64,000 bases of DNA from Raillietiella orientalis (GCA_036172245.1 JAYWIR010000031.1:496001-560000); one strand, 5' to 3'. Counted from the stretch's first letter, positions 1 to 29,352 are shown. Program-made: numbers and translations. Notes: generated by a model from the letters alone, not told the origin.

Positions 1-924
1 CTTACATCAGGGAGAGACCGCTTCGCCTTCCCTCCCCTTTCCATCTCCTCCCGCTTTCCCGCGCGAGGCGGACCCGTTTCGCCGCGGCCCGCGTCCGTCG
101 AGACGCGAACGTCTCTAAGCGCCTACGTGGTTGCGGGAAGCTGCGATCGCACATCTCCTGTTACATCTCGTGCGAAGAGGTGCGGAGACGAAAAGAGTTG
201 CATCTTCCTTCTCATCCGAGTGCCCGTATGGATTACTCGCCCTTGTTCCTGGAAATCTCCCCGTGCCCGATGCGGCTTCGGGTTTCTCTCTCCTCTCTGG
301 CCGCTCCGGAGTGGCGGCTCCGAAACGTCACGAATAGGATGCAGAAGGCGCGCTTTCGCTGCCAGGATAGTACTGCTGGAGGGAAGAGACGACCACATCG
401 CCCCCTTGGGAGGGACTCCTTCCTCTCCCACGGCCGCCGCCGCCTCCATCTTGGCGGGCGCTTCTCGACAGAGGGCTCTGTGCGTTGGTGGCGCTCCTCG
501 GCGCTTGCGGGCTTTTGCTGCTCCTTGAAAGCTTCCCTCCCTCCGGAGGCTCGATGAGGGAAAGAGGAGGAGGGAGAGGAGGGTTGGTGGTGGAAATGCA
601 TGGCGTCCTGCTCCTCTGGCCTTGGTTACCGTGGGATGCGATCGGCTTCCCCCTTGTGCGAGCGCAGTTCCTTTGGCGACGCCGTGCTTACAGCTAATGG
701 AAGCCGCGGAAAATGGAATCCAGGGCGAATCCCCGCATAAATCTAGGTAATGACACTTCGGGTACACAGCGCGGAGGATGCAGCTTCCCGTGGAAGGGGG
801 AGGGAAGGAGGAGTTTGCCTCGCCAGAAACGCATGCTCTTCGGGGGCATCCAAAGCGGGCAAGCGACCGACCGCGTGGCGATGGGCAGGTGATGGCGCGA
901 TTCCTTCAAGCGAGCTGCTTTGTG

Positions 925-1170
925 AAAGAAGGAGGAAGGAAGGAGAATGAGGACGGAAGTATGAAAAGAAAGGGAGGAGGTGGAAGGCAGGAGAATGAGG
1001 AGAGGATGGGAGGAGGAGGAAGGAGGAGGACAATAGGGAAGGAAGGAGGAGGAGAATGGAAAAGAAAGGAGGAGGAGGAGGAAGGGAGGAAGAAAGGAGA
1101 ATGGAGAATGAAGGAGGAAAAGGAAGGGAAGAAGAGAGTGGAAGTGGAGGAAGAAGGGAAGGAAAAGCAT
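925..1170. repeat. Purine-rich low-complexity tract (GGA/GAA)
   Basis: Almost entirely A/G. It explains the E/G/R/K-rich and F/S/L/P-rich spurious ORFs here. Confidence 0.9.
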
Positions 1171-3218
1171 AGTGGTTCGAAAGCTGGAACCGACCCTCGT
1201 CCTCTATCGGTGACGCACGAATGTTCAAAGGCCTCTGCCACGTTCGAGGATCCACATGCGCCGAAATTCCTTCAGCTCAATCGGCTGGTAGCTGTGGCTA
1301 GGTTTTCAGGAAGGGTTCGCGGATCCCCAGGCCTTTCGAACCTTCCAGTGATTCCGTTTGCGGAGATCGGAGAGGGAAAAGAGTGTCATGGAGAGACTCT
1401 TCTACATTCCATCCCAATCGAGAAAGATCCTCTTCTACAGACGGCGTGTGCACGGAGGGAGGCTCTCTCACGGCGTTTCCGTCGACCATTTTCAAGCAGC
1501 TCGCGACTCCTCCCCCCATCGGATCGGCCGCCCCTCTGTGCCAAAGGTCCCATCCCGTCCGCTCCTCGATGGCCACAGGCGGCAACGCCGCCGTGCATGC
1601 TGAGGACCCTCGCGGCTAGGCCATCGGGACGCTTTGATCGCACTTCCGCGCGGGTGGCAGCTGGAACCCAGTCCATTTTTCGGGAGTGGAACCGGGACCC
1701 ATGGTGTCCTCACGAAGCGGTGGGTACGTTCCCGTCGGCTACGGTTCTTCTCGCGCTAATTTATGTTAATGATTGCAGCTGCTGTTTGCAATCCTCTGGT
1801 CCCATTAATCATCTGCAACTCGGAGCGGTTTCGGAGAGCAGGGGAGCGCGGGAGCGTTTATCCAGTTTGGATCCAATTAAGTACCAAAGCGATTTGAATG
1901 TCATCAGCTTGTTTTCGCGGGTCTTCTCAACACGGTCGGAACGCGGGTGCGGAGGAGGCGCTGCTTCGTACACAAACAGCATGGGTGGGAATGCGCATCT
2001 TCCCGGTTCGCTGCGAGGTTTGGCCCTGGAGAAGTTCGGGAATCGTGGAAGGAAAACAAACAAACAAACAAGAAGAAGAAGCCAAGAAAAATGAAAGGAA
2101 TGGATGAGAAAAAAAATGGGGGGGGGAGGGGAGAAACATGGCAGGTCCAGCTGTCTTACCCGCACTTACCCCTCCTCCTGGGGCCCACGGATGGAAACAC
2201 TCTCGACGTCAGCTGATGCGAGGTGATCCTCTGAACAAGTCGCACGGCATCGCATCTTCTTCCCTCCATCCTCCCATCCTGATCGTCCCTCCCTCCCAGA
2301 GCTAGGAATCGTCGGAAGAATAGCGCCGTCCCCTGCTCGTACCCGCCACGCTTTCAACCTGTTTTGACTACCTCGAGCCTCGGGCGCTTTCCCGCTCGCG
2401 CTCTCCGAGAGCGAAGATCAGCGAGAGAAGGGGGAATATGTGTACACTGAAGTTTGTACGATGAGGGACGAGGTTCTTTGTTGGGACGAACCCGCGCGAG
2501 GGGTCCTGCGGCAGCGGCCTTCGCCCCCAACCCCGATCATCGGAGATGCTGCCTGCCGCTCCTCTCTGTGGTCTTCCTAGTCGTGTAGCAGCGGAGGAAC
2601 TCTGCGAGCGTACCAATGCACGCCACCTGGTCAGGGTCGGCTGCTCGACCTTCCTCCGCCAGCAGGCCATCGCTGGGCGACCCGAACGAGCGGGATGTGT
2701 GCGCACATCGGGGTGCCATTTTCCTGAATCGCATCCCGGGGTTCGCTGTGGTTCATTCCAGTAGCTGCTCGGCTATGGGAACGAGCGAAGAATCCTTCGG
2801 CTTTTGCACTGACGCCTCGAGGCGTGCAGCACTCTCAACGAACGGTCTCGGGTGGTGCCTTGCAGAGCCATCTCCCGAGGAGCGCCCGGTCGGGCAGCGG
2901 CGGCGGAGGTCGCGGAAAGCGCTCTCCGCTAGACCCGCTTTTTCACTCGGGCGGAGGAAGGGAGGGCCATTTCGCGTTCCCCCGCTCGGGAGGAACCGGG
3001 GTCGCAAGGTCCGCCTGCAGGAGGCACCGCCACTTTCTCCGTTGGTGCCTCCGGTCACCGGTTGCTTCCTCTTTCCCTCCGTCCCTGCCCGCTCCCTCCG
3101 AGCGAAAAGTTCACATGATTCCTTCTCCCTCCTTCCCCCCCCTCCGGTTGGTTGCTAGGCGCCAGGAGGCCGCATGGCGGCGATCTAGGGATCTCTTTCA
3201 GGACTCCCTTCTTTTCAG

Positions 3219-3450
3219 GTTGAACCAGGACAGGAACGGCGGAGCCTGGTGTCCGCTCAACCAGATCGCCGAGAACGTGTACGAATACCTGGAAGTGCAA
3301 CTGAGCGGGATTCACGTGATCACATCCGTTCAGACTCAGGGGAGGTTCGGGAACGGGCAAGGGCAGGAATACGCTGAACACTACCGCCTGGAGTACTTCC
3401 GCCCTGGATTTTCTGCCTGGAGGTGTTACCGCGACCGGAGGAACTCAGAG
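3219..3450 (+). CDS. Ddr: DDR exon, discoidin (DS, F5/8 type C) domain part 1
   Basis: Acceptor ttttcag at 3212-3218. Encodes (R)[77 protein letters not shown]. Ends at GAG|GCAAGT (GC donor). Confidence 0.93.
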
Positions 3451-6400
3451 GCAAGTGCACCGCTTGTTCCAGAGGGCACGGCTTCCTCCCGCTGCCCCTC
3501 TTCCCTCCGGAAGAACGGGGGAAGCGGACGACCTTTGGCCGCTGCCGCGCCCGGTGAGGGGAGGGAAATTTCCCGGCTCCCAGGGAAGGAGAAAGCAGTC
3601 TCGGAGCATGGGATTCTCCTGGACGGAACGCGGAAGGCGAAGCGGAGACGACCACCGCCGCGAGCGACCTCGCCGTCGCGAATGTGTTTTGTTTTTTCTT
3701 TTTGGGGCCTTCCCGAGCGCTGCGGCCTCCTCCGAACGCGCTGCCCAGGGAGGGTCCGGGCGTTCTCTCTCGATTCCCCGCCGTCGTCAGCAGTCCGCGG
3801 GAAGGAGGGGAAGGGTGGACGTTGCCTGCGGAGGCGCCCGGCTCGTCCTCGGCTCTGGACCGGCCGCTTCCTCCTGCGCTGCCGTCGCTTCCGCGACCGA
3901 AGGGGTGCCTGCCGCCTCCTCTCGAGTCGGCGATCTGCGTGCATCGTCATCTGCCGCGCGCATCCGGCGCACGCCGAGTTTCGAGGCAGGTGACGACTCT
4001 CTCTCCCCCTCTTCCCCCTCCGTACGAATCAGCGGCGGTGACGCAACTCGCCAGCCGGGGAGGGAGGGGAGGGGGGTTACCCGCGCTGACGATTTCGGTC
4101 CGCTTGGCCATCCCGATTTCGGAGCGACCGGACAACCGGGGCGTTCACACACTCGACGGCGTTCCGTTTTCTCGAAATCACAAGCGGTGTGGCGTTACCT
4201 GTGGCAACGCTTCGCGCTGGATGGAGTTCCCTCCTTTCATCTGGCTGTTTGTGTTATCGGCCTAGGAATCCCGAGCGAGAGTATCGATCAGCAGATTCTT
4301 CGTAGGTGTTTCTGAAGCCACGGGATAGCTCTCTAGCGTTTCTGCTGACGCGGGTGCGCGCGTTCCCTCAGGCGGCGGCGACGGTCGCGGGACGCCTCTC
4401 CTCACGCTGGCGATAATGACTGATTCATGATTTAGTGAACGCGTGAGCGAAACGACGACGCGAGTGACGACCGAGATGGTTATCGGCGCGCCTCGGCAAC
4501 CGCGCGTGTTCATCACAAGAGCGGGAAGGATGCGATTGTTTTCCCGGAGGATTTATATCTGCCGATTCCGAAGGAGAGGTCGGAATGGATCCCCTCATGC
4601 AGGGGCGCCCGTACAGGTGCTCGCATGACACGGCGGGATCCACCAGAAGGTGATTCACACGACGCGCGTCCGCGGCCCTGTTGGCGCACGCGGGACTCCG
4701 CCTTAGTGACATGCCCAATCTCCTCGTTCCAGGTTCTGGAAGGGAACGCCAATACTTATCTGGCGAACAAGCAGAGGCTGGACCCACCGCTGATAGCGAC
4801 GAAGATTCGGTTTGTTCCCCACAGCATCCATCCCAGAACGATCTGCCTCAGAGTGGAACTTCATGGATGCAAGTTTTCAGGTAAATCCTCCGCACTGCCT
4901 TTTCAGTGCGCCATTTTCCTCTCTCTCTCTTTTGTCTTTTGATTTTGATTTTTTTAAAAAAAAGCTTCAGTGTCTCTAAGAAGCGCAGTCGTTAAGATCT
5001 CGAGGCATTGAGCTTTCCGGTTCTGTCGCAGATGGGCAGAACACGGATCCCAATGATGCGGATGCATGTCGTGAAGCTGATTGCAGGAGCCATTCGACGG
5101 GGGCATTTCCTATAAGCAGACGCGCGCGCGCGTTTCCCTGCAGAGGACCGTTGCCAGCGGGATATAGAGACCATCAAGTTGCATTTCCTCGTACTGGGAG
5201 ATTTCGAGCTCTCCCATCGTTGCCACATGGCTGCTTTAATACCTCGCGGCCGAATCGCCCCCTAATGGCCTTAGTGTTCCAGAACTCGTTCCGTGCTTTC
5301 AGGAACACGCAGCCATAAACCTCTTGAGCGCGCAAAATGGGTTTGCAAAATAGTCAGGGGGATCCGGTAGAAGACGCTTGCCGCGCCGACTGAACTGCTC
5401 CAGAGTTTGCTCTCTGACACAGCACAGCATGAGACAACACACTTTTGAGAGAGAAAAAAGAGGGCGAAGAAGAAGAAGAGAAAAACAGACTTAATCAGAT
5501 ATTCGACTAAGGAAGATTCTTCCGTTTTCACTGCGAAAAGGCTTCATCGCCTTCCACGAGCCATCCGCGTCATTTCGAGGGGTGAACAAGAAGTGCTCTC
5601 TGCTTCGCGAACGCAGCCACGGACGGTGGTTCAGGGCAAAAGCACGCGTTCGTCGACGCGACATCAAGATGGTCGAGCAGACAGAGAAGGTGGAAGAAGA
5701 GCAAGCGAACGAAACGAACGGATCAGTGAGAAGCTCTTCTCGATCACGATGCTGGAGCTCTGCTAAAGGCGCGACGATTTATACGGAAAGTTCTTGTGCG
5801 AAAATTCGACACCAGGGTCTTCGGGTTGGTCCCGGAGCTCCTGGCGGTCACTTCTATGAAATATCCAGAGCGTAGCGCGCTGCGCTCTTTTGTCACCCTT
5901 CACTTCCGGTTCCTCTACAAGCTCAGCCTTCGTCGACGCATGCAACGAAGAATAAAGCGTCTTCGAATCTTGAGCTCTTAGAGGTGGGCAGACGTTCGGA
6001 GGTCGCACCCCAGCAAAACAGAGGTTCTCTGGGCGACTTGCAGAGCTATCGCCCATCCATAAAGAGCGCGGAAGGTAATCGGCAAAGGGAAAACGGCGCA
6101 CACAAGTCCTCTGCCGAAAGTGGGCCATCCTTTGCGATGTCATCAGGAGAACACTCAAGATACCGACAACATAGAATTCAAGAGAAATACAGCATGTAAA
6201 CAAAAACAAAAAGCAAAGTGAGCAGGGAAATGGAATCCCCTTTTTCGCATCTCCGGCGTATCGTCAGACAGAGGTCCCTCATGAAGACGTGTCCCACGGA
6301 TCGCCTAGGTGATTTCTCCCTTCTTAGCGTGTCGAACGCAGGCAGGCTCGCGTCTGTCTGCACCTTTTCCTATAATCGAAAAATCCTTACGAAAGTTCGG

Positions 6401-12400: not shown

Positions 12401-15400
12401 CTGCACCTTTCGTTTCTCGAGTGTTTTTGTCCTTCTCATCCCTTTTTCGGATTCCGCCTCTTTTGAAAATGCTGCCGCACTGTTGCCCACTCACTCCGAC
12501 TTTTTTTTTTTTTTTTGGCCTTCCGAGCTTCGAGCTGAAGGCGCCTCAAACATGTCGAACGAAATGAGTGAAGCAGATATTTAAGTTTTGGCAGATTGGG
12601 TTCTTTCGACATCCAGCAGGTACAATCCGAAGCACAATTCCGCGTCGGAGTTCAACCATACGCCGTGCTAGTGAAGGAGAGGTGGAGGTCTTCGCAACTT
12701 CTAAAAGACCCGACTGATTATTAGAGTGGTCCACCCGCCACCAATGCCTGAATCACAGCAGCCGCTGCATGCTTGCTCAGAAGCACGCGTCCGGCTGTAT
12801 CCTGTCGTTTCGAAATCGCTAATGCTTGATCGTTCCCGCCAGTCAGAAAGGTCAGATGTGTTCCATTACCTGCTCGGAAGCGTTCGCTTTGTCCTGAGAT
12901 GTGCAACAAAGGATTCTTGCCGGAGGACGCTCCAGCCGCCGGAACAAAGCATCGGGCACAACTCTCTGCTTCGCGTCTGCCGGCCCGCGGTGACTGTGAA
13001 GAATTCAAGATCCACACCGGAGAGGCTTTTGGAAAGAGAGAAAGTCTCGCCGAGCGAATTGGCGGTGCAGGAAGGAGACGGCACTTGGTGATGCAGCGTG
13101 GTTGCCGCCCCAAACAGATGCACCGCTGAAAGGTTCCTTCGTTGGTTCCTGGAAGTCCTTTTTCCGATAATTTGCTAAGAAGGATGGATGCGTTTCTCAC
13201 GTGCAGTAAGCTGCGCTTCCCTTTGCTGCACCAAAGAGGACTCTTTCATCTTCCTCCTCATTGTCTTAGAACGAGGTCCTGGAGCCCAAAGGAGATTACT
13301 CGAGCTGCGGCGTTAATTTTGTTGGCAGCTGAAATCTTTCGCGTTCAAACGGCGAACTTTCCCAGTAGAACTGTCCTGACCTCGAGAAATTATGCGCTTC
13401 TAAGTGATTCTCAGATAGATCCCGCCAGCAAAAGAGCTGCATTAATTGAGTCTTTTTAAAATTGACCCCCACAAAGAACTTCCAATTTTCCCACTAACGT
13501 TCAATTACATCATTCCAAGTGCTTCTTAATATTACACATTAGATTCAGATATTGAGGTAATGTTCTTTTGCTATCATTTCAGAAGGCTTGGTCAGTTACT
13601 CCATCCCGCAGGGCGTGAAAATTTCCAAGGATCTCGACGTTAGTGACAAAACTTACGATGGGCAGATGAAAGGGAATTTCCTTGTTAATGGTTTGGGTCA
13701 GCTCACTGACGGACGAATTGGCCCGGAAGACATTTACACTGATGCTGGTTAGAGAATTTTCAGCCGTCCCTTTCCCCCCCATTATACAGATGATCTAGGC
13801 TATGAGTGGGTAGGCTGGCGTAACGACTCCAAGGTGATCTCGAAACCCGTTGAGATAACTTTCGCTTTCGAGAGCGTCAGGGAGTTCACCTCACTGTCCC
13901 TCCATACGAGTAACATGTTTTCCCACGGAGCGAAGGTGATAAATGGATGTGCTTGTTGGTCCCACGTGTCTCTTAGCTTTTCTCCAAGGTGCAGACTTAC
14001 TTCAGCATCGGAGGTCGCTTCTATGATCGGCATCCGGTCACGGCCATGTACCCTGCGGACGACGCGCTGGAGCATCCTCGATTCCTGGAGGTGAACCTGA
14101 AGAAAAGACTGGCTCGGTTCATCAAGATGCACCTGTACTTCCCCGGAGAACTCTTGCTGATCAGCGAAATCCAATTCGTATCCGGTAATTCGTTTTACTG
14201 CTCGCTCCCCACGCTCCCAAGGCAAAAAGACCCGCGCTCGAATGGCTGGAAGCTTCGTTGGGTGAGTTGGGTGACGTCCGCTCGTGTATTGGGTGAGGTT
14301 GCGATCGCGCTTGCTTGCCTGTCGGGGAGGCGCCATCTTGCCGGCGCGAGCCACACGTACGCCAAGATTTCCGCATCCGATGGATTGCGGGAGCGATGGC
14401 ATATTCTATTCATTACGATAGGAGATGAACAAGTCTGCATCCGGCCGCTTAATTGACTTTCTCCGGCCGCTCCGCGTGCGAGCGTGTGCGAACGCGAGGG
14501 CGGACGGCCGTTCTGCTCAGCACTTCACTGCGTGTATTTGTGGTATGTATTTCGCGTGTGCCTTGTACGTGCGTGTCCCATGTACACATTACGAAGCGGC
14601 GTGCGAAGAAATCTGGCGCTTTCTGCCGTGTACGTGCTAGCTGGCCGAGTGGCTGCTTCTTTTCAGGCATCGTGCAAATGTCTCGAGACTGCATCCCATC
14701 CATTACCGCTGTGGTTGAAAGATTTTTGCACTTTACAGCATCTGCGTTCGGAATGCTTTGAGGATGCAGCCTGCAGCGAGGGTGATTTCCAGAGAATGCC
14801 CCGTCAGGGTTGTGCGCTTTTTTTTTTTTTTTTTTGGCTGCCTCTCATGCTGAGATTTTCGTCGAAGGCAGCACACTGAAATTCCAACCTACTCTAGCCG
14901 CTGCCATTCTTCGTGGTCCATTGTGAGGAAGGACTGCAGGGACGCTAAAGCGAATGTAATCCATGTGTCATATTTAATCATTATTGTGTGATTTATCTTT
15001 TGGGGAAATGGAAGTCCCTTTAAGAGTGGCATGGGCGACACACAGAGTCCAGATGCGCTTGCATTTCGGTCCACATACTCGCATAATCCGTTCTGTTGAG
15101 AATCCGGAGGATGTCCTCATGTAAGGGTGGTCACCTAGCCCGTTGTCCAGAGGAAAGAACCGTTTCTTTTCGCGCCCCTTCGAGGTCGGGTGGAAAAACT
15201 TTGAAAAGCGATTGGCAGAAAAAAGCAAAACGAAACGAAACAGGGAAGCTGCGTTTCCAGGGAACGGGTTCGTTTTGCCCGCAGTTTAAATTTCAGCCAC
15301 TCGGAAGAGTCCGATCAGCTTCCGATAGCCTGACGGCTCAGGCTCTGCTCTTCTCCCGCGTCTTTGAACGCTCGCAAATAAGTGCTCGCGTCTTAGGTCC

Positions 15401-18400: not shown

Positions 18401-21400
18401 CAGGGGATGCGTTACGTGTTATATGAACCCTATGAATTGCACGTGAGTAATAGAATAGCGTTCACAAAAGATAGGAAATGTCACTTAAATGCTATGACAG
18501 TGGAATATTTAATATCTTTTATCTATCTTAATCTTTCAATATAACTTTAAAGCAAGAAGAAAAAGAATTAAAAGTGTCGATTTACTAATTAAATTCAAAG
18601 GGAAAAAAAGTTCCGCTCCTATCATTCTCGCCGTTGAAAAACGTAACTTTTCGAGCTGTTTCGTCCACGAGAATTTGAATGTGGCCAAATGCAGGGATGC
18701 ATTCGTGTTGTTTTTGAAAAAAGCCGAATTACCACCGTGTCGGAGAGTTGCAGTTTATCCACGAGCGTTGTACGAGGCTGATTTTCCGCGTTGTACGAGG
18801 ACCGGCGTCGGGATGTTTCCGTCGCGTTCCACTCCTTCTGCTGCTCGTCCTCCCATGTGTTACGAGGCACACTTTCTGCTCGTTTCCCGGTGTCTAGGTG
18901 GTGTCTGCTCGTCTCCACGCGAATCGATGCACGCCGTGTGCAAGGCGATCGTCGTGCATAAAGGGGGAAGTGTGAAGTTTATGTGTTTGGACGAGTTCGG
19001 TCGGAATGAATGTTCTTCCACTTTGCCGTCCTTCGGAATAAACAGGTCGGCAGGGTGCCGTTGTTTGCTTCGGTCCCGTTACTGGCGGTCCACGCGCGGT
19101 GGTCGCCAAGGAGTGTGCGTGAAAGCTTTGTTATTTCCAGTTGTGGCTCACGGAGGCTTTTCCGAGGAGAAGGAACCGCTGCAAATGGCCGGCGTGCACT
19201 TCAGCAGCAACCAGAAGGCTTCGACGAAACCATCCGATGGAGGTAGGGTGGCCGCGCGGGTCGATTTGCCGGGGTCCTTTTTTCAACGGCCATCCGCTTC
19301 AGCCGTGTTCGTCGAAGTCAGCCAGCCGGACTGGGTTTACGTCGTCGCCATCCTTGTCAGCGCCATTCTCGCGTTGGGCGCGGTCATCATTGTCGTTTAC
19401 CTGCTTCCTCGTATGAAAACGGCATCTTGCTTCCGGGAGCAGAAGAACAGCACAGCTTCCCACCACGCGCTGTTGAGAGAGGCCATGAGCGAAAGGAACA
19501 ACTCGTTCGACATAAAGGTAGGTGAAAACGAGTGCACGAATGCTGGGGGGTGGTGTGGGTACGGCGGATGACTTCCAGCGACGACATTTCTTCCAGCTAG
19601 AGAGACTGGTTTTTCACGTAAGGGGTCCACACGCATCCAGGCTGCGCTGTAGATAACCGGAAGCCTGTAATCTGCGTGGTGACATCCACTTTTTCGCTTT
19701 TTCCCTTCTTAAAAAAAAGCACCATGCTCTGGTTCTTGATCCCTCAGGCACTCGAAACAGCATTTTCGGGATTATTTCGTTCCCTAGCCGAGGCGTCTTG
19801 TGTTCACCAGCAACCCAACGACCTTAGAGTAGCTCGTCCTCGCAGAGGTGGGGGTAGAAAGACATTTTCGCTTTAGCCTAAGTGGTCGCCCGACGCCTGA
19901 ATTTCTAGAGGTCACCAGCGGCAGCGTGCCAATTTGTTTTTAAGGACAGAGCTGAGTATCTCCTGGCCATAAAATCTGCATTCCTATCTACAGGATATTT
20001 GGGGTTTGTGAAGCAGGGACGAAAGAATTCGCAATTATGCTAGCAAACCAGGACAATGCTTTACTGCCTTGAGGCACAATATATGGGGAGAGTCTGCCAC
20101 CCACTGGACAATTTACAAAGCCTGCAAAAGCATCGAGAGATCGAGTTCCATCAGCATTGCAAAAAGAAATCTAGCAAGAGACCGAGGAATTATAAACAAA
20201 AGCTCTGGTTCAGATAATCGGGCAAGCGGTTGATGGCCAGTGAAGACCCACAGAGATGAATGGGGTGAAATGCCGAATGTGCAAGAATGAATCTGAATTC
20301 CGGATAGCCGATGAAGATTGGGTTCTCCAGGTCATGCAGATTCGTAGAGTGGATCAGTGTGTCCTTTTCGCTTGAGACGCGAGAGGAATTCCCGCGTGGG
20401 TGCGGGAAGAAAACGGAAGGCTTCCACGCATGTGACGCGTTCACGGAGCAGAAATCGAGTCGGGTCGCGCTCGGCGAGGAAGGAGACCCGCACGCCGGAA
20501 GCGTCGCGATCCAATCCGACTTTTTTTTTTTTCCCCACCACGTGTGAGCGTTCGATCTTAGTCTGGATCTGCTATGTTGGAAATGGGTCATCCGGCTTGC
20601 GATTACAAGATCGGAAACCTGCTTTCGCGTCTTCCCTGAGTGACTTGTCTCCTGCGTCCTCTCCGCTGAGGAGGATTCCAGACCGCAGGGAGACGCACGC
20701 ATTCGAAAAGAATTTCATTTCCATCTTCACTTAAAACAAAAAAAACGCTCGTTTTTTTTTTTTTTTTTTTTTATGACGTGGCTGTTACATCCGAACATCC
20801 TAAAACATAAAGTCTTGAACAGAGAGCAGGAAGAGCGCAACGACCTCCGGAGTCTGGGAGATCAGTAGCTTTCCAGGAAGCATCATCATCATCATCCCCG
20901 TTTATTTCCCTTCTCTCCCCATCCACGCACGGCACTTTAGAATGCTTCTCCCCCTCGAATCGAGGAATGCTTTTTGTTTGGAAACGCGGTCCGTATCTAT
21001 GGCCTCAGACTGGGCTGCTCGCGGCAATTAAGCGAGTGAGGATCGCCTCACCCCTACGTGCTGCGAGAAGGCTTGAGCGTGCTCTTCTGCAAAGTGGTAT
21101 TCGTCCCAAGATTACTCGACCATCATTCAAACAGCGAGGGAAAGCAGCCGAAAGGAACGAACCCGGTGGGGCCCGCAAAGATACAGAGAATCTCCACGTG
21201 ATGAAGTGATCAGCGATGGTGATTTCGAGGATGCATCGGTGGTGATGGCAGTGGTGGTACAGCGAAGTGAACCGCGCGGGGCCGCAGAACTGGCGACTTC
21301 TGCCGCAAGTGCCGCGTTCTTCGGGCGCGGCTCGCTGACGGTGGCGCGCACACGGGCGCACGAATTTGGCTTTCACGAGCGCGGAAACGATTGGAAGCGG

Positions 21401-24400
21401 GCGACCTGGAAGTCCATCGATCTCTGTGATGAATCGAGAGTCGAAAATACCAGCGGAATATGATGAGAGTAAGAGTTACCCCTTTCGTCTATTTTCCCCC
21501 CTCCATCAAAAACACACACACACACACACAAAAAAAAGGCACCTCGGTAAAGATAAACAAGAAGCGTTATGGAAAAATTGTCTCCGTGTGGACAGGAGAT
21601 CATGGCGAGTAGTGCCTGTCTTCTAAGACGGCCTGATCAAAACTGTGGGGGGTGTCCTCGGTGTTTTACAGAGGGCTCGCGGAGTATGTCTTCCGAGGGC
21701 GTGTGGACGGGAGCAAATAGAAAATCATGGGCAGAGGAGTGAGCCCTTGCGGGCTGGCACGAAAACGAGGGGTCTCACCCAAATGGTGGATTTCAGCAAT
21801 CGGGGGTTTCTGGAAACATGTGTTCCAGAAGGAAAACCATGACTCGGCATAGTTCCCATGCACACGCTGGGCAAGTCACATACGAGACCACTTGTTTCTC
21901 ATGGAAGGCGTATCTCTTCCAGTATAGAATCACCAAACGAAGCCGAAAGTTTTGCTGGTAAATTTCGGAAGGTGCATTGCTGCTCGTGGGTGGGAAGGTG
22001 ATCTCGTGATCGCTGATTGAAAATTTTGTGCTTCCTGTTCCAAATTCAGAGGGAGAAGAAAGAAAGAGGGAGAGGAACGTGCATTCTTTGTTGATAAACT
22101 CTTGAATCCAGGAACGTAAAATAGCTGTAATTTTTACCTAACCTTTGAGGATGTTGCTCTGCGTCGAAGGGCGTTTCATCATTGGGGTAGTGTGTGGGAT
22201 CAGACAAGAGTAATGGAAACTGAAGGCACGTTCAGCGTCACGTGACTTCAAGAACCAAAGAAAGCAAACAAGGCTCACTTGAGTCAATAACAATTCGTGA
22301 GTGGAGTGCAACTCTTCAGTGGGGCTCAACTCACACACGTCCGTATTCGGGGACGGAGGGCGTGGCGAGGATGTGGGGATGTATGGGAACGACAAGCATC
22401 CTCGGCGAAAAAGATGCAGATTCAAATTTCCGTGCTTCACTGATCGAGCTTTTCGTCGCTCCCGGTTGCGGAAAGATCTGTTCAGTGGATGACTGCAGCG
22501 GATGTTCCAAGAACAAGAGGAACGTGTGATTTTGACGGCAGCGTCTCTGAACAGAGGCTTTAGCGAGTTAGGGGGGAGAGTTAGGAGTGAAGGGTGCTTT
22601 GTGCAGCTCTTCCTGCGGAGGACTCGTGCACTGCTCGCTGAGGGGACTGTTCACGTGGAAAGTTCGGGAAGGAAAGCTCACCAGAAGCCGAACAGGAATG
22701 CAGCTCTTTGTAACACTCTTCCATCTGAAGTCCGGACGCTTCCCCCCCACCAGACTGTCGGCTCCTTTCCATCCGGGTCATGAAGTGGGTTCGCAGGCTG
22801 CAGGGTTTTCTGACCAGTTCCCGCAGGAGTCTGGAAGGGTGGCTCCGTGAAGACGCGTTGTGAATCAGTGTAGGTCAGCATTAGTAGGGAACTCCGGAAC
22901 ACCCGAAACGTCGTTTTTGGCTTCCTGAAAAATAAAAGGTCCCTACTGTATCTTCTTCAAGATCACATCATGTCCGTCTTTCAGCATCAGGTTCCCATTC
23001 CTTTCAAGGGGCTGTTTCCAGAGAGGAGAAGAGAAAAGGAAGCGAACTGATCTCGAACTTTCCAGAGCATGCAAAATACCAACAGAGAAGATATGTACAG
23101 CCAGATCGCCTTCGAGGAAATGGTCCCCGAGAAGAACGTAATCTACACGGAACCTTTCCAATCCATCGTTAATGGTTTTGGGTACTTTTGCACTGACAAG
23201 AAGCACAGTTCCGTCTCCACGTACGCGGAGCCAGAGGAGGAAGTTCAGAAAGTGGGATCGGAGTATCCCACGCTGCCGTTGGCAACCATCAGCAAGGCGG
23301 ATACATTCCACGTGGATCGCGTGAAGATGATGACGCCGACGTTTCTGTCGCCATCATTCCAGCAAGCCCAGCCATACGCTTCCAGCCTGATCCTCCAGGT
23401 AAGTCCCCCATCGTTCGGAGTAGCGCTTCAACCACTCTTCAAGCCGGACACGTTTCTGCCCAAGAGCAAGAGCTACTCTCCTGTGGTCGCCTCGGGAAGC
23501 GACGCCAAGCGGGAAATCGTGTGGTCCGACCTGCGGGTGGTGGAGAAGTTGGGAGAGGGACAGTTCTCAGAGGTCAGTCTTTTGCCTCTTCTCCGGGGAC
23601 CCACCAGCGTCTTTCTCGGAAGCGTAGGTGTTCTGCTGCCAGTACCTCGATCCTTGCGTGATTCCCAGCTGCACGACTGTGTTGGTGAAGTCTCTGAAGA
23701 CTTCCATGTTTGGAGAAGACAGGTTAGGAAGACCAAGTCGCCTTCCTTCCTCTCTGATGGCGCTTTCCAGGTTCAGCAGGGAGGAGTTCAAGCTGCTCTT
23801 CGACCTCAACGACCCTAGCATACTGCGCGCTCTGGGCGAAGTCAAGGAGAACCCGAGGGCTGTGGTGTTCGAGAGCACACAATATGGATGCCTCAAGCTG
23901 TATCTCCAGCGATGCCACGAAGAGCAGAGTGGCAGCCTGCCTGGCAAAAACCCTCTCAGGTACAAGAATCAGCATCTCGCAAGCACGGCACCGTCGATGT
24001 GCGTCTTTTCCTTCCAGTTACGGATGTCTGATTTTCTTTGCCGCCCAGATCGCTTCCGGCATGAAATACCTGGAAGAGAAAAATTATGTACACGGGAGTC
24101 TGGGATGCAGGTAAGAAGTTGCAAACACTGCTAGAGGATCGGAGGGAGACTGAGGCGGAGACCGATCTCATGAAGCGCACGCTGCAAAGAGCACTTACAC
24201 GCACCGGTTTCCACGGAAATGGGTTCAAACCCACGTCCCGGCAGAAGGGGTCGCCTCGCCGTGGAACCATCGGATCCGTTCTCGTTCCTCCAAGAGTTCG
24301 CGTCTCCGGAGTTGATGGCGGGAGGCGAGCGGTCGATCCTTCCTAGAGACCGCTTCCGGGATCAGCTTCTTCTGCACTTGGCTGGTGCCCAGGCTGCGCG

Positions 24401-25446
24401 CAACCTCCCGCTCCCTCTCCCGAATGTAAAGAGCTCTCGGACTCGCCTAGCCACCTCCGAAGCTTTCATGGCATCCGCGCCGAACGAAGGGAGAGGAGGC
24501 ACCCACAATTCCGCATCACGTTTCCAGGGAGCTTGATCAGCTTCAGCTCAGATATGGGTCACGCCCTTCAGGCACTCACGCCAGCCCAAGTCACTCTCGA
24601 TTCAAGATTCACTGAAATACCAGGGCATCCCAGATCATCCTTCGATCCTCTCCTTTGACTGGAACCTCGGCGAGTGTGTGACCATTTCCTCGTCCCGGTG
24701 CTTTTGCAGGCGTTGGCATGTCCACAGAAGACCCCCTTCTCCCGGTCTCTCGTGTTTGGCGTAGGGCGCGCCCCGCGTTTCCAGACCTCGTTCGCTTCAG
24801 ACTGATGAGATAGGAACCTTTGGGAAAGATCGCCGACGAGTGACCTCGAGAATGACGGGCGTTTCCCTCCTCAGGAATTGCTTCCTGGACTCCGGATACG
24901 CTGTCAAGATCGGCAACTTCGACTGGAGCGGGGGACCCTTCGGCGACGAGTACGTCCAGCTAGACAGAAATTCCGTGATGCGGCCGTTGCGATGGATGGC
25001 CTGCGAGACTGTGATCACCGTAAGCCAAGCGGCCCCTGCCTCGGGTTCCGTGCCCAAGGGTTCCTGTCTTGTTCCAGGGAAAGCTTTCCACGAAGAGCGA
25101 TGTCTGGTCCTACGCGGTAACCCTGTGGGAGATCCTGACGTTCGGCGTGATGCGGCCACACACCCTGCTGGACAATGATGAGGTCCTCGAGAATGTCCGG
25201 CACGCCTGGGTGGCGGACGGATTGCAGGTTCGCATCCCCTTCCCTGTCTTTTGCCCTCCCCCCTTTGGCTGGCCGCAACGAGCCGTGTTGCAGCTGTACC
25301 CGGAACAACCGTCTGTGTGCCCGAAGGAGATTTACGACCTCATGCTGGAATGCTGGCGGCGGAACGAAATGGAAAGACCCAGCTTCCGGGAAATACATCT
25401 CTTCCTGCAGAGGAAGAACCTGGGGTTCACACCCGACGCCACTTGA
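3219..25446 (+). CDS. Ddr: Discoidin domain receptor (DDR)-family receptor with a predicted catalytically dead kinase domain; 15 exons visible, 5' exon(s) missing. join(3219..3450,4733..4880,13583..13747,13790..13935,13977..14184,19141..19242,19303..19517,23066..23398,23444..23572,23628..23722,23771..23959,24018..24110,24875..25019,25078..25227,25294..25446)
   Basis: Manual splicing gives 2503 nt with matching phases at every junction and one open frame to TGA at 25444-25446. DDR hallmarks occur in the expected order: [69 protein letters not shown] helix, [59 protein letters not shown]. Confidence 0.93.
4733..4880 (+). CDS. Ddr: DDR exon, DS domain part 2
   Basis: gttccag| [49 protein letters not shown] |gtaaat, phase 0 to 1. 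Confidence 0.95.
8974..8995. repeat. (TG)n microsatellite
   Basis: Read directly. Confidence 0.95.
10400..11140 (+). mobile_element. Degraded, internally deleted pogo/Tigger-family (Tc1/mariner) DNA transposon in a DDR intron; ends approximate
   Basis: 10515-10610 reads, with frameshifts, [29 protein letters not shown], resembling a CENP-B/Tigger N-terminal HTH. 10775-11029 reads [25 protein letters not shown]...[12 protein letters not shown], resembling the Tigger post-DDE helix and acidic tail. A repeated atatagtca...gataga(g/a)aaactttt motif lies at 10400-10500. The segment is AT-rich. Confidence 0.65.
13583..13747 (+). CDS. Ddr: DDR exon, DS-like domain part 1
   Basis: atttcag| (E)[54 protein letters not shown] |gttaga. 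Not in the ORF track. Confidence 0.92.
13790..13935 (+). CDS. Ddr: DDR exon, DS-like domain part 2
   Basis: Follows a 42-nt intron. (D)[48 protein letters not shown] |gtgata. Confidence 0.9.
13977..14184 (+). CDS. Ddr: DDR exon, DS-like domain part 3
   Basis: Follows a 41-nt intron (tcttag|). [69 protein letters not shown] |gtaatt. Confidence 0.9.
17143..17164. repeat. (CA)n microsatellite
   Basis: Read directly. Confidence 0.95.
19141..19242 (+). CDS. Ddr: DDR exon, extracellular juxtamembrane linker
   Basis: ttatttccag| (V)[33 protein letters not shown] |gtaggg. Phase-compatible and in frame with the TM exon; a poorly conserved region. Confidence 0.65.
19303..19517 (+). CDS. Ddr: DDR exon, transmembrane helix
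   Basis: cttcag| (A)[38 protein letters not shown]...NNSFDIK |gtaggt. One hydrophobic helix followed by basic residues. Confidence 0.85.
23066..23398 (+). CDS. Ddr: DDR exon, cytoplasmic juxtamembrane region
   Basis: ctttccag| [14 protein letters not shown]...VIYTEP...STYAEP...EYPTLP...LILQ |gtaagt, phase 0. Confidence 0.75.
23444..23572 (+). CDS. Ddr: DDR exon, juxtamembrane end and kinase Gly-rich loop
   Basis: [43 protein letters not shown] |gtcagt. Confidence 0.85.
23628..23722 (+). CDS. Ddr: DDR exon, kinase beta2-beta3 (VLVK)
   Basis: gcgtag| [31 protein letters not shown](R) |gttagg. Confidence 0.85.
23771..23959 (+). CDS. Ddr: DDR exon, kinase alphaC to hinge
   Basis: ctttccag| [48 protein letters not shown]...KNPL(S) |gtacaa. 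Confidence 0.85.
24018..24110 (+). CDS. Ddr: DDR exon, kinase alphaE and degenerate catalytic loop
   Basis: ccttccag| [30 protein letters not shown](R) |gtaaga. HGSLGCR replaces HRDLATR. Confidence 0.93.
24875..25019 (+). CDS. Ddr: DDR exon, degenerate DFG and activation segment
   Basis: cctcctcag| [48 protein letters not shown] |gtaagc. Confidence 0.93.
25078..25227 (+). CDS. Ddr: DDR exon, kinase alphaF-alphaG
   Basis: gttccag| [50 protein letters not shown] |gttcgc. Confidence 0.92.
25294..25446 (+). CDS. Ddr: DDR last coding exon
   Basis: gttgcag| [50 protein letters not shown], then TGA. Confidence 0.93.
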   Translation: MYPEQPSVCPKEIYDLMLECWRRNEMERPSFREIHLFLQRKNLGFTPDAT

Positions 25447-28637: not shown

Positions 28638-29352
28638 CCTGCCATTTCCTGGATCCGCGAACGGGAAGCTTTAGAGCGCTTTTGAGCGATGGATGGTGTT
28701 GATTCTTTGTAGGAACGAACGATGCACTCGAAGGTATGCAGAGTAGGAGGAAGGGAATCCCTGAATGAAATCTGCTTCACGTCAAATCCGGAAATGGATT
28801 GACGCTCCATCTATTATTAGTGAATGGGGAGTGGCGAGGGTGATCGGTGTCCTCTGATGATTGGTGCTAGGAATGTCTTCTCGTAGTTACAGACTTCTCA
28901 CGGATGGCAGGCTCTTCTTTCCCGTTCGGAAATCTTCCCATCTTCCCTTGAGGCGGTGCCGCGAAAGCGCGCCCCGCGGAAGTGAAATTTGGAAAAGCCG
29001 TTGGCCTCCAACGGAGCTGCAGGTAGTCAGCAAGAGTTTCTTCGCACGGAGGCCAGAAATTTTCTTGGGAGACGCCAACTCTCCATATGCAAGGCTGGCT
29101 GTTTGGTATTCTCCTTTCTCAACACCAGTCACCAGAGAACACCAATCAGCTCCTCCATTTCCTGTTTACTAATAATAGATGGAGCGTCAATCCATTTCCG
29201 GATTTGACGTGAAGCAGATTTCATTCAGGGATTCCCTTCCTCCTACTCTGCATACCTTCGAGTGCATCGTTCGTTCCTACAAAGAATCAACACCATCCAT
29301 CGCTCAAAAGCGCTCCAAGTCTTCCCATTCCATGGGTCCAGGAAATGGTAGG
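28638..29352. repeat. Long inverted repeat: perfect 148-bp core (28674-28821 / 29168-29315) with imperfect outer (~35 bp) and inner (~47 bp) extensions and a ~250-bp spacer
   Basis: Base-by-base reverse complement. The ORF track shows the same peptide (MERQSISGFDVKQ...AQKRSK) on both strands. Confidence 0.97.

Follow-up and report, generated by a model that had tools for sequence, protein, structure and literature searches.

The 64-kb stretch of Raillietiella orientalis DNA analysed here (GCA_036172245.1, JAYWIR010000031.1:496001–560000; hereafter ‘the window’, with coordinates counted from its first letter) contains one discoidin domain receptor (DDR)-family gene, at 3219–25446 on the plus strand, as delimited by splice sites read from the sequence. 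It is the sole DDR locus in the 64 kb when seven full-length DDR proteins are used as tblastn queries. Both catalytic aspartates of the kinase domain are replaced in its product, and we consider it probable (roughly 0.7), on the sequence evidence set out below, that the gene is functional and that it encodes a matrix-binding transmembrane receptor of DDR type with a pseudokinase domain.

The gene is described by a phase-consistent model of 13 exons, which yields 868 codons in a frame that is open throughout; the first-pass annotation of this DNA had proposed 15 exons, but 13 are supportable, the 5′ exon(s) not having been found in 1–3216. All 12 introns of the model have usable splice sites, 11 of them GT–AG and one GC–AG. 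The same annotation had described the splice sites as clean and the frame as lacking stops and frameshifts, and for the kinase region this stands: the seven kinase-region exons (23066/23507–25446) join into one frame with one terminal stop, and the six introns between them (55, 48, 58, 764, 58 and 66 nt) are all GT–AG. Outside the part of the gene that it covered, the description does not hold for the intron at 3451–4732, which has a GC donor (GAG/gcaagt ... ttccag), the form GAG/gcaagt being typical of such donors. Intron sizes in the gene are bimodal, with seven tiny introns (41, 42, 48, 55, 58, 58 and 66 nt; located at 13748–13789, 13936–13976 and within 23573–25293) beside others of 1.3–8.7 kb. 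The 48-nt and 66-nt introns are in frame and stop-free, so that their retention would leave the frame open.

The ectodomain begins with a discoidin domain split between two exons. The first part found (3219–3450, whose acceptor might instead lie about 18 nt further upstream) shows 47–59% tblastn identity to the seven DDRs, and the second (4733–4880, ending ...VELHGCKFS) shows 50–64%, with a phase that fits its neighbours. When Pfam was run exon by exon, these pieces (3217–3450 and 4730–4879) scored 27.9 and 18.5 bits against F5_F8_type_C (PF00754) over profile positions 19–82 and 86–127, each alone below the 28.2-bit cut-off; the first ~18 positions of this profile and the signal peptide were not located in the window. 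The discoidin Trp, Arg and Glu are kept around GAWCP and TQGR...E in alignment with human DDR1 and DDR2. Three consecutive exons at 13583–13747, 13790–13935 (after a 42-nt intron) and 13977–14184 (after a 41-nt intron) then match DDR1-2_DS-like (PF21114; cut-off 27 bits) at 56.1, 60.0 and 57.4 bits, spanning profile positions 1–177. The extracellular stalk, the transmembrane helix (a 25-residue hydrophobic stretch, by direct reading of the sequence) and the start of the cytoplasmic juxtamembrane region lie in the exon at 19141–19517, which matches the DDR profile weakly (positions 372–460, E 1.0). As its borders we took the sole acceptor that is in phase and has a ttccag tract where this match starts, and the sole phase-0 donor, AAG/gtaggt.

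The juxtamembrane exon (23066–23572) matches positions 490–636 of the DDR profile (E 3.7e-10), aligns with 12 DDRs and ends with the glycine-rich loop (G-loop) of the kinase domain. Five Tyr motifs in this region are conserved in 12 protostome DDRs, and the window protein keeps the Tyr in four of them (DMYS, NVIYTEP, STYAEP and PYASS), the fifth having Phe. Six further exons complete the kinase domain: K2 (23628–23722; beta2–beta3), which the DDR profile missed on its own; K3 (23771–23959; alphaC, beta4–beta5, hinge and alphaD), which is highly divergent and matches weakly (Pfam 18.4 bits, DDR profile 15.7 bits); K4 (24018–24110; alphaE and the catalytic loop HGSLGCR(N)), with 26.2 bits against PK_Tyr_Ser-Thr; K5 (24875–25019; beta7, NFD, the activation loop and PLRWMACET), recognized by motifs and alignment; and K6 (25078–25227; alphaF and alphaG) and K7 (25294–25446; alphaH–alphaI and the stop codon), both with database, Pfam and PDB matches and the latter scoring 89 bits against the DDR profile. 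Altogether PK_Tyr_Ser-Thr (PF07714) matches four kinase pieces.

That the gene is a DDR-family receptor, as first annotated, is borne out by these Pfam matches and by two further comparisons. In the PDB, the discoidin exon has its closest solved structures in human DDR1 and DDR2 (E 6e-13 to 5e-12), and the kinase C-lobe in DDR2 (E 1.5e-20) followed by DDR1. Searched against 5.8 billion proteins, the C-lobe piece gave 517 matches among 550 candidates, and the best 120 of these 517 are nearly all named DDR, with 47–55% identity over the C-lobe, and come from arthropods, molluscs, a nemertean and a tardigrade. The domain order is complete for a DDR, running from discoidin and DS-like domains through a transmembrane helix and a long juxtamembrane region to a DDR-type kinase domain. 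The protein has no special affinity to any one DDR clade, its identity to all groups being about equal; in trees it joins an insect clade with DHA in place of DFG under LG+G4 (a join flagged as a long-branch one), but not under the C20 mixture model, one of the C20 trees being the result of a quick search.

Kinase motifs of the window protein

The catalytic loop reads HGSLGCRN in place of HRDLATRN, so that both the Arg and the Asp of HRD are lost, the latter to Ser, and DFG reads NFD, with Asp replaced by Asn and the Gly changed. Both aspartate losses had been claimed at first pass and are confirmed by reading the exons at 24018–24110 and 24875–25019. Because HGS and NFD lie inside exons and adjoin strongly conserved residues, they are independent of the splice model. 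We tabulated the same motifs in the 95 full-length DDR proteins among the best 120 public database matches (P0001–P0120). The HRD Asp, scored as H[RK]D, is kept in 93 of the 95; one of the remaining two has a gap and the other, P0034, is an exception that appears to be mis-modelled. Among the 25 shorter matches, 21 could be anchored at this site and all 21 read H[RK]D. The DFG residues are less constant across the 95 full-length proteins, with the Asp kept in 74 and the Gly in 86, as are the beta3 Lys (63) and the alphaC Glu (71). Judged from these sequences, loss of the HRD Asp is the only unusual part of the motif decay of the window protein among DDRs.

Around these two sites the kinase domain is a mixture of kept and altered elements. 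The G-loop GEGQFSEV (23552–23572) is present; VAVK has become VLVK, with the beta3 Lys kept and the Ala changed to Leu; the alphaC Glu (REEFKLL) and the Asn of the catalytic loop are kept; the gatekeeper residue is Phe; one Tyr of three remains in the activation loop; the Trp of the P+1 segment is changed (WMAWES to WMACET); and the C-lobe motifs KSDVWS and ECWRR..ERPSF are present. The first-pass readings of HGSLGCRN, NFD, GEGQFSEV, VLVK, the alphaC Glu, the single activation-loop Tyr and the C-lobe are all found in frame where they had been placed. A pseudokinase is defined by sequence as a kinase domain without at least one of the VAIK Lys, the HRD Asp and the DFG Asp, and here two of the three are lost within a recognizable kinase domain.

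An alternative exon with canonical HRD or DFG, which the first-pass annotation had named as grounds for abandoning its reading, does not occur in the window: a six-frame motif scan detected no HRD-like site elsewhere on the stretch, and no HRD-like or kinase-context DFG exon in the 764-nt intron (24111–24874) that separates the HGS and NFD exons. The only plus-strand DFG triplets in 1–30000, at 4091 and 4115, are not in a kinase context and were discarded. As for the intron itself, it is more than 10 times as long as its neighbours in the kinase region (48–66 nt); we found no copy of it elsewhere in the window, no tRNA within it and no Rfam match.

With Ser at the HRD Asp and Asn at the DFG Asp, the protein thus reads as a DDR by descent and architecture and not as an active DDR kinase. 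It might be argued that catalysis is rescued by relocated acidic residues, either the Asp of NFD, which sits two residues beyond the lost one, or that of CFLD, in the way that WNK kinases use a relocated Lys. The two new Asp residues do lie near the active site, and retention of the beta3 Lys, the alphaC Glu, the catalytic-loop Asn and most of the G-loop makes nucleotide binding conceivable, although whether nucleotide would be bound is uncertain, since the Leu that replaces the VAVK Ala may crowd the adenine pocket. We nonetheless regard such an atypical active kinase as very improbable: neither the catalytic base nor the Mg-binding Asp is present; changes have also reached the Arg of HRD, the Gly of DFG, the Trp at P+1 and two activation-loop Tyr out of three; and nowhere is the protein less conserved than in its activation segment (0.31 identity to canonical DDRs vs 0.80 among them), the reverse of what would be expected for a working active site.

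Conservation and decay along the receptor

The divergence of the window protein is unevenly distributed along its length. We compared its identity to 12 canonical DDRs, segment by segment, with the identity among those 12. The discoidin domain stands at the canonical level (0.55 for the window protein vs 0.57 among the canonical DDRs) and the DS-like domain somewhat below it (0.42 vs 0.55). Within the kinase domain, identity is 0.33 vs 0.68 for alphaC–beta5, 0.48 vs 0.71 from alphaD to the catalytic loop, and 0.31 vs 0.80 from beta7 through the activation segment, and rises to 0.63 vs 0.75 in the C-lobe (alphaF–alphaI). The same imbalance appears in trees, where the end branch of the window protein is 13 times the median in a kinase-only tree (1.44 vs 0.11) and 4.6 times the median in an ectodomain tree (1.01 vs 0.22), reversing the usual order of rates in DDRs, in which the kinase is slower than the ectodomain. 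Changes are further concentrated within the kinase domain itself. There are 119 kinase columns that are at least 95% identical in the 47 of the 95 full-length matches that keep K, HRD and DFG, and the window protein differs at 37 of them; 21 of these 37 fall in residues 138–200 of the 296-residue domain, a span running from the catalytic loop up to where alphaF begins, and only four in the last 96 residues.

This pattern, with catalytic elements changed and the frame, ligand-binding domain and C-lobe maintained, points to a functional pseudokinase; it fits a selected receptor pseudokinase and not an old pseudogene. If neutral drift had been enough to change 37 of the 119 columns, the reading frame would have broken: in simulations over the 2226 nt of homology-supported coding sequence, the probability of remaining free of stops was 0.19 at 2% divergence, 0.018 at 5% and 0.001 at 10%, and these figures allow for substitutions only, insertions and deletions being expected to lower them further. 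A different case is that of a recently inactivated or unexpressed pseudogene, that is, a pseudokinase or fast-evolving DDR copy that has lost its promoter or 5′ exons and has not yet acquired stops or frameshifts. We think this unlikely. The very long branch in the full-length tree (1.63 vs a median of 0.2) and the lack of any annotated protein of this locus or of a close relative in the 5.8-billion-protein collection would suit such a copy, as would the 5′ exon(s) missing from 1–3216. Yet its 868-aa frame is open through 13 exons, with usable splice sites at all 12 introns; drift to so many changed columns would almost always have created stop codons; uniform neutral decay would not concentrate change in the catalytic elements and leave the discoidin domain at the canonical level; and, given introns of 1.3–8.7 kb in the ectodomain part, the first exons could plausibly precede the start of the window.

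Several observations nevertheless weigh against a functional receptor pseudokinase. Searches with full-length and N-terminal DDR profiles found neither the signal-peptide exon(s) nor the first ~45–65 discoidin residues in 1–3216, so the gene could be truncated at its 5′ end, although the missing exons may lie upstream of the window, which the 8.7-kb reach of the ectodomain introns makes plausible. On 1–3300 the N-terminal DDR profile scored no better on the plus strand than on the minus-strand control, and an ‘ASSS’ stretch at ~2240, considered as a 5′ exon, was rejected as chance. Nor was an orthologue or close relative found; the juxtamembrane exon had no match among longer proteins (264 candidates) or proteins of similar length (61 candidates). 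The N-lobe is extremely divergent: with the read-through piece at 23628–23959 (110 aa) as query, a search of 1.84 billion representatives gave 0 matches at E ≤ 0.001, though this query contained the translated 48-nt intron, which may have lowered its score. Given such divergence, a stable kinase fold has to be assumed, and the first-pass proposal of a fold under selection therefore holds for the C-lobe and the ectodomain, both conserved, but not for the N-lobe, which is too divergent (0 relatives) to bear it out. In addition, since the juxtamembrane alignment covers a variable region, the matches of the DMYS and PYASS tyrosines are less certain, and the window (tblastn, 64 kb) holds no second DDR that might act as a partner kinase in the mechanism proposed below. 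Finally, as regards expression, the argument for a functional gene is drawn from sequence, and the locus may have lost its function recently, without a lesion so far.

Proposed function and comparison with other receptors

A functional receptor pseudokinase of this kind would be incapable of phosphate transfer; its ectodomain would still bind an extracellular-matrix ligand, the receptor would cluster, and a signal would be passed on without catalysis. Signalling without enzyme activity is, on this evidence, the most likely mode of action. The Arg of TQGR is, we presume, the equivalent of the collagen-binding Arg of C. elegans DDR-2. In the nematode protein, collagen binding needs a conserved Arg (PMC5161311). 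Inside the cell, the receptor would most likely serve as a platform for docking, with either an active DDR paralogue or a cytoplasmic tyrosine kinase phosphorylating its conserved juxtamembrane tyrosines in trans. We favour this mechanism because the tyrosines are kept, because DDR1 ‘receiver’ mutants unable to signal are phosphorylated in trans on collagen by functional ‘donor’ DDR1 (PMC5489314), and because DDR2 has tyrosine-kinase-independent actions (PMC8542384); mechanisms that depend on a partner are inferred.

Alternatively or additionally, the protein may be an adhesion or matrix-organizing receptor, adhesion alone being the main alternative mechanism. In its strictest form this alternative makes the protein a pure adhesion or decoy receptor, whose ectodomain binds matrix and anchors the cell or competes for ligand while the cytoplasmic domain has no signalling role. 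The ectodomain is indeed the best conserved part relative to canonical DDRs. A cytoplasmic domain free of any role would, however, hardly be expected to keep four of five juxtamembrane Tyr motifs together with a strongly conserved C-lobe (0.63 vs 0.75) and last exon (an 89-bit profile match), and we therefore judge the strict form improbable.

To our knowledge, DDRs are as a rule regarded as collagen-activated kinases and do not figure in the usual list of receptor pseudokinase families. That list includes the vertebrate ErbB3/HER3, PTK7, RYK, EphA10, EphB6 and ROR1, which keep an intact kinase fold, have lost catalytic residues and signal non-catalytically; they belong to other receptor tyrosine kinase subfamilies, and none is a DDR. 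ROR1, labelled an ‘inactive tyrosine-protein kinase’, is among the weaker PDB matches of the window protein’s C-lobe. Among the literature titles listed for DDRs and pseudokinases and for invertebrate receptor pseudokinases, none concerned a DDR pseudokinase. The main text of the Schistosoma kinome paper names DDR only in a figure legend (PMC3117856), and Drosophila Ddr is described simply as a receptor tyrosine kinase in a paper with 0 occurrences of ‘catalytic’, ‘pseudokinase’ or ‘kinase activity’ (PMC10112903).

The window protein shares with DDR1, DDR2 and C. elegans DDR-2 its domain order, the discoidin Arg and Glu at TQGR...E and the juxtamembrane Tyr motifs. Those receptors are active collagen-activated receptor tyrosine kinases, whereas the window protein lacks both catalytic Asp. 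In C. elegans, the kinase activity of DDR-2 is needed for axon regeneration (PMC5161311). A closer parallel is Drosophila Smal (Smoke alarm, CG34380), a DDR-family protein reported in a preprint to be without HRD and DFG, and functional in vivo in nociceptor dendrites, with mutant phenotypes (bioRxiv 10.1101/2021.05.12.443649). The likeness to Smal, as the preprint describes it, is that both are DDRs without HRD and DFG; the difference is that the window protein keeps a clearly recognizable DDR kinase domain, with the beta3 Lys, the alphaC Glu and a conserved C-lobe. The first-pass caution that kinase-degenerate DDR paralogues might already have been described was thus well placed: a kinase-dead DDR is already known as a kind, and the window gene is a further example.

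Many insect DDRs show the same architecture with decayed catalytic machinery. Thirty of the 95 full-length matches are without the beta3 Lys and 20 without the DFG Asp, and 18 have Lys at the position of the alphaC Glu and 18 Ser for the catalytic-loop Asn. For example, Diptera show VAVATL, HRDLATRS and SIG or TIG, Coleoptera have His or Tyr for the Lys together with DLG, and one clade has DHA for DFG. The decay takes a different form in the window protein, which keeps the Lys and Glu and loses both Asp, whereas the degenerate insect DDRs keep the HRD Asp and many of them lose the Lys and the alphaC Glu. In database names, all of these motif-decayed proteins are plain ‘discoidin domain-containing receptor 2’ or similar.

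Taken with Smal and the many insect DDRs that have lost the beta3 Lys or the DFG Asp, the window gene suggests that catalysis was lost repeatedly within the DDR family. It contributes an example of a DDR that has lost both catalytic Asp and retains its juxtamembrane tyrosines, C-lobe and matrix-binding ectodomain. If losses have indeed recurred, DDR signalling that needs no kinase activity, a matter of debate for vertebrate DDR1 and DDR2, would count as an ancient and recurring mode. Taken alone, the window gene offers one more natural ‘kinase-dead’ DDR for comparative work, and no new principle. A bolder and rather doubtful proposal is that it is the only DDR of its lineage, with matrix sensing wholly without intrinsic kinase activity, the C-lobe acting as an allosteric or docking surface, the tyrosines written by a different kinase, and the whole arrangement evolved independently of the insect cases; the retained C-lobe and decayed N-lobe would then follow a HER3-like ‘activator-only’ pattern.

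Flanking sequence

Downstream of the receptor gene, none of the 107 stop-to-stop open reading frames of at least 115 aa on both strands of 25500–64000 matches Pfam at E ≤ 0.001; the GC content of this region varies between 0.42 and 0.65. An inverted repeat of ~230 bp with 90% identity lies ~3 kb downstream of the stop codon, at 28638–28866 and 29123–29352; both arms carry the same open frame of ~60 aa (MERQSISGFDVKQ...), and the repeat may represent the two termini of a small mobile element. On the other side of the gene, upstream of its first located exon, a low-complexity purine/pyrimidine-rich stretch at 900–1250 contains long open frames on opposite strands, rich in Glu/Gly/Lys/Arg on one and in Ser/Pro/Leu/Phe on the other.

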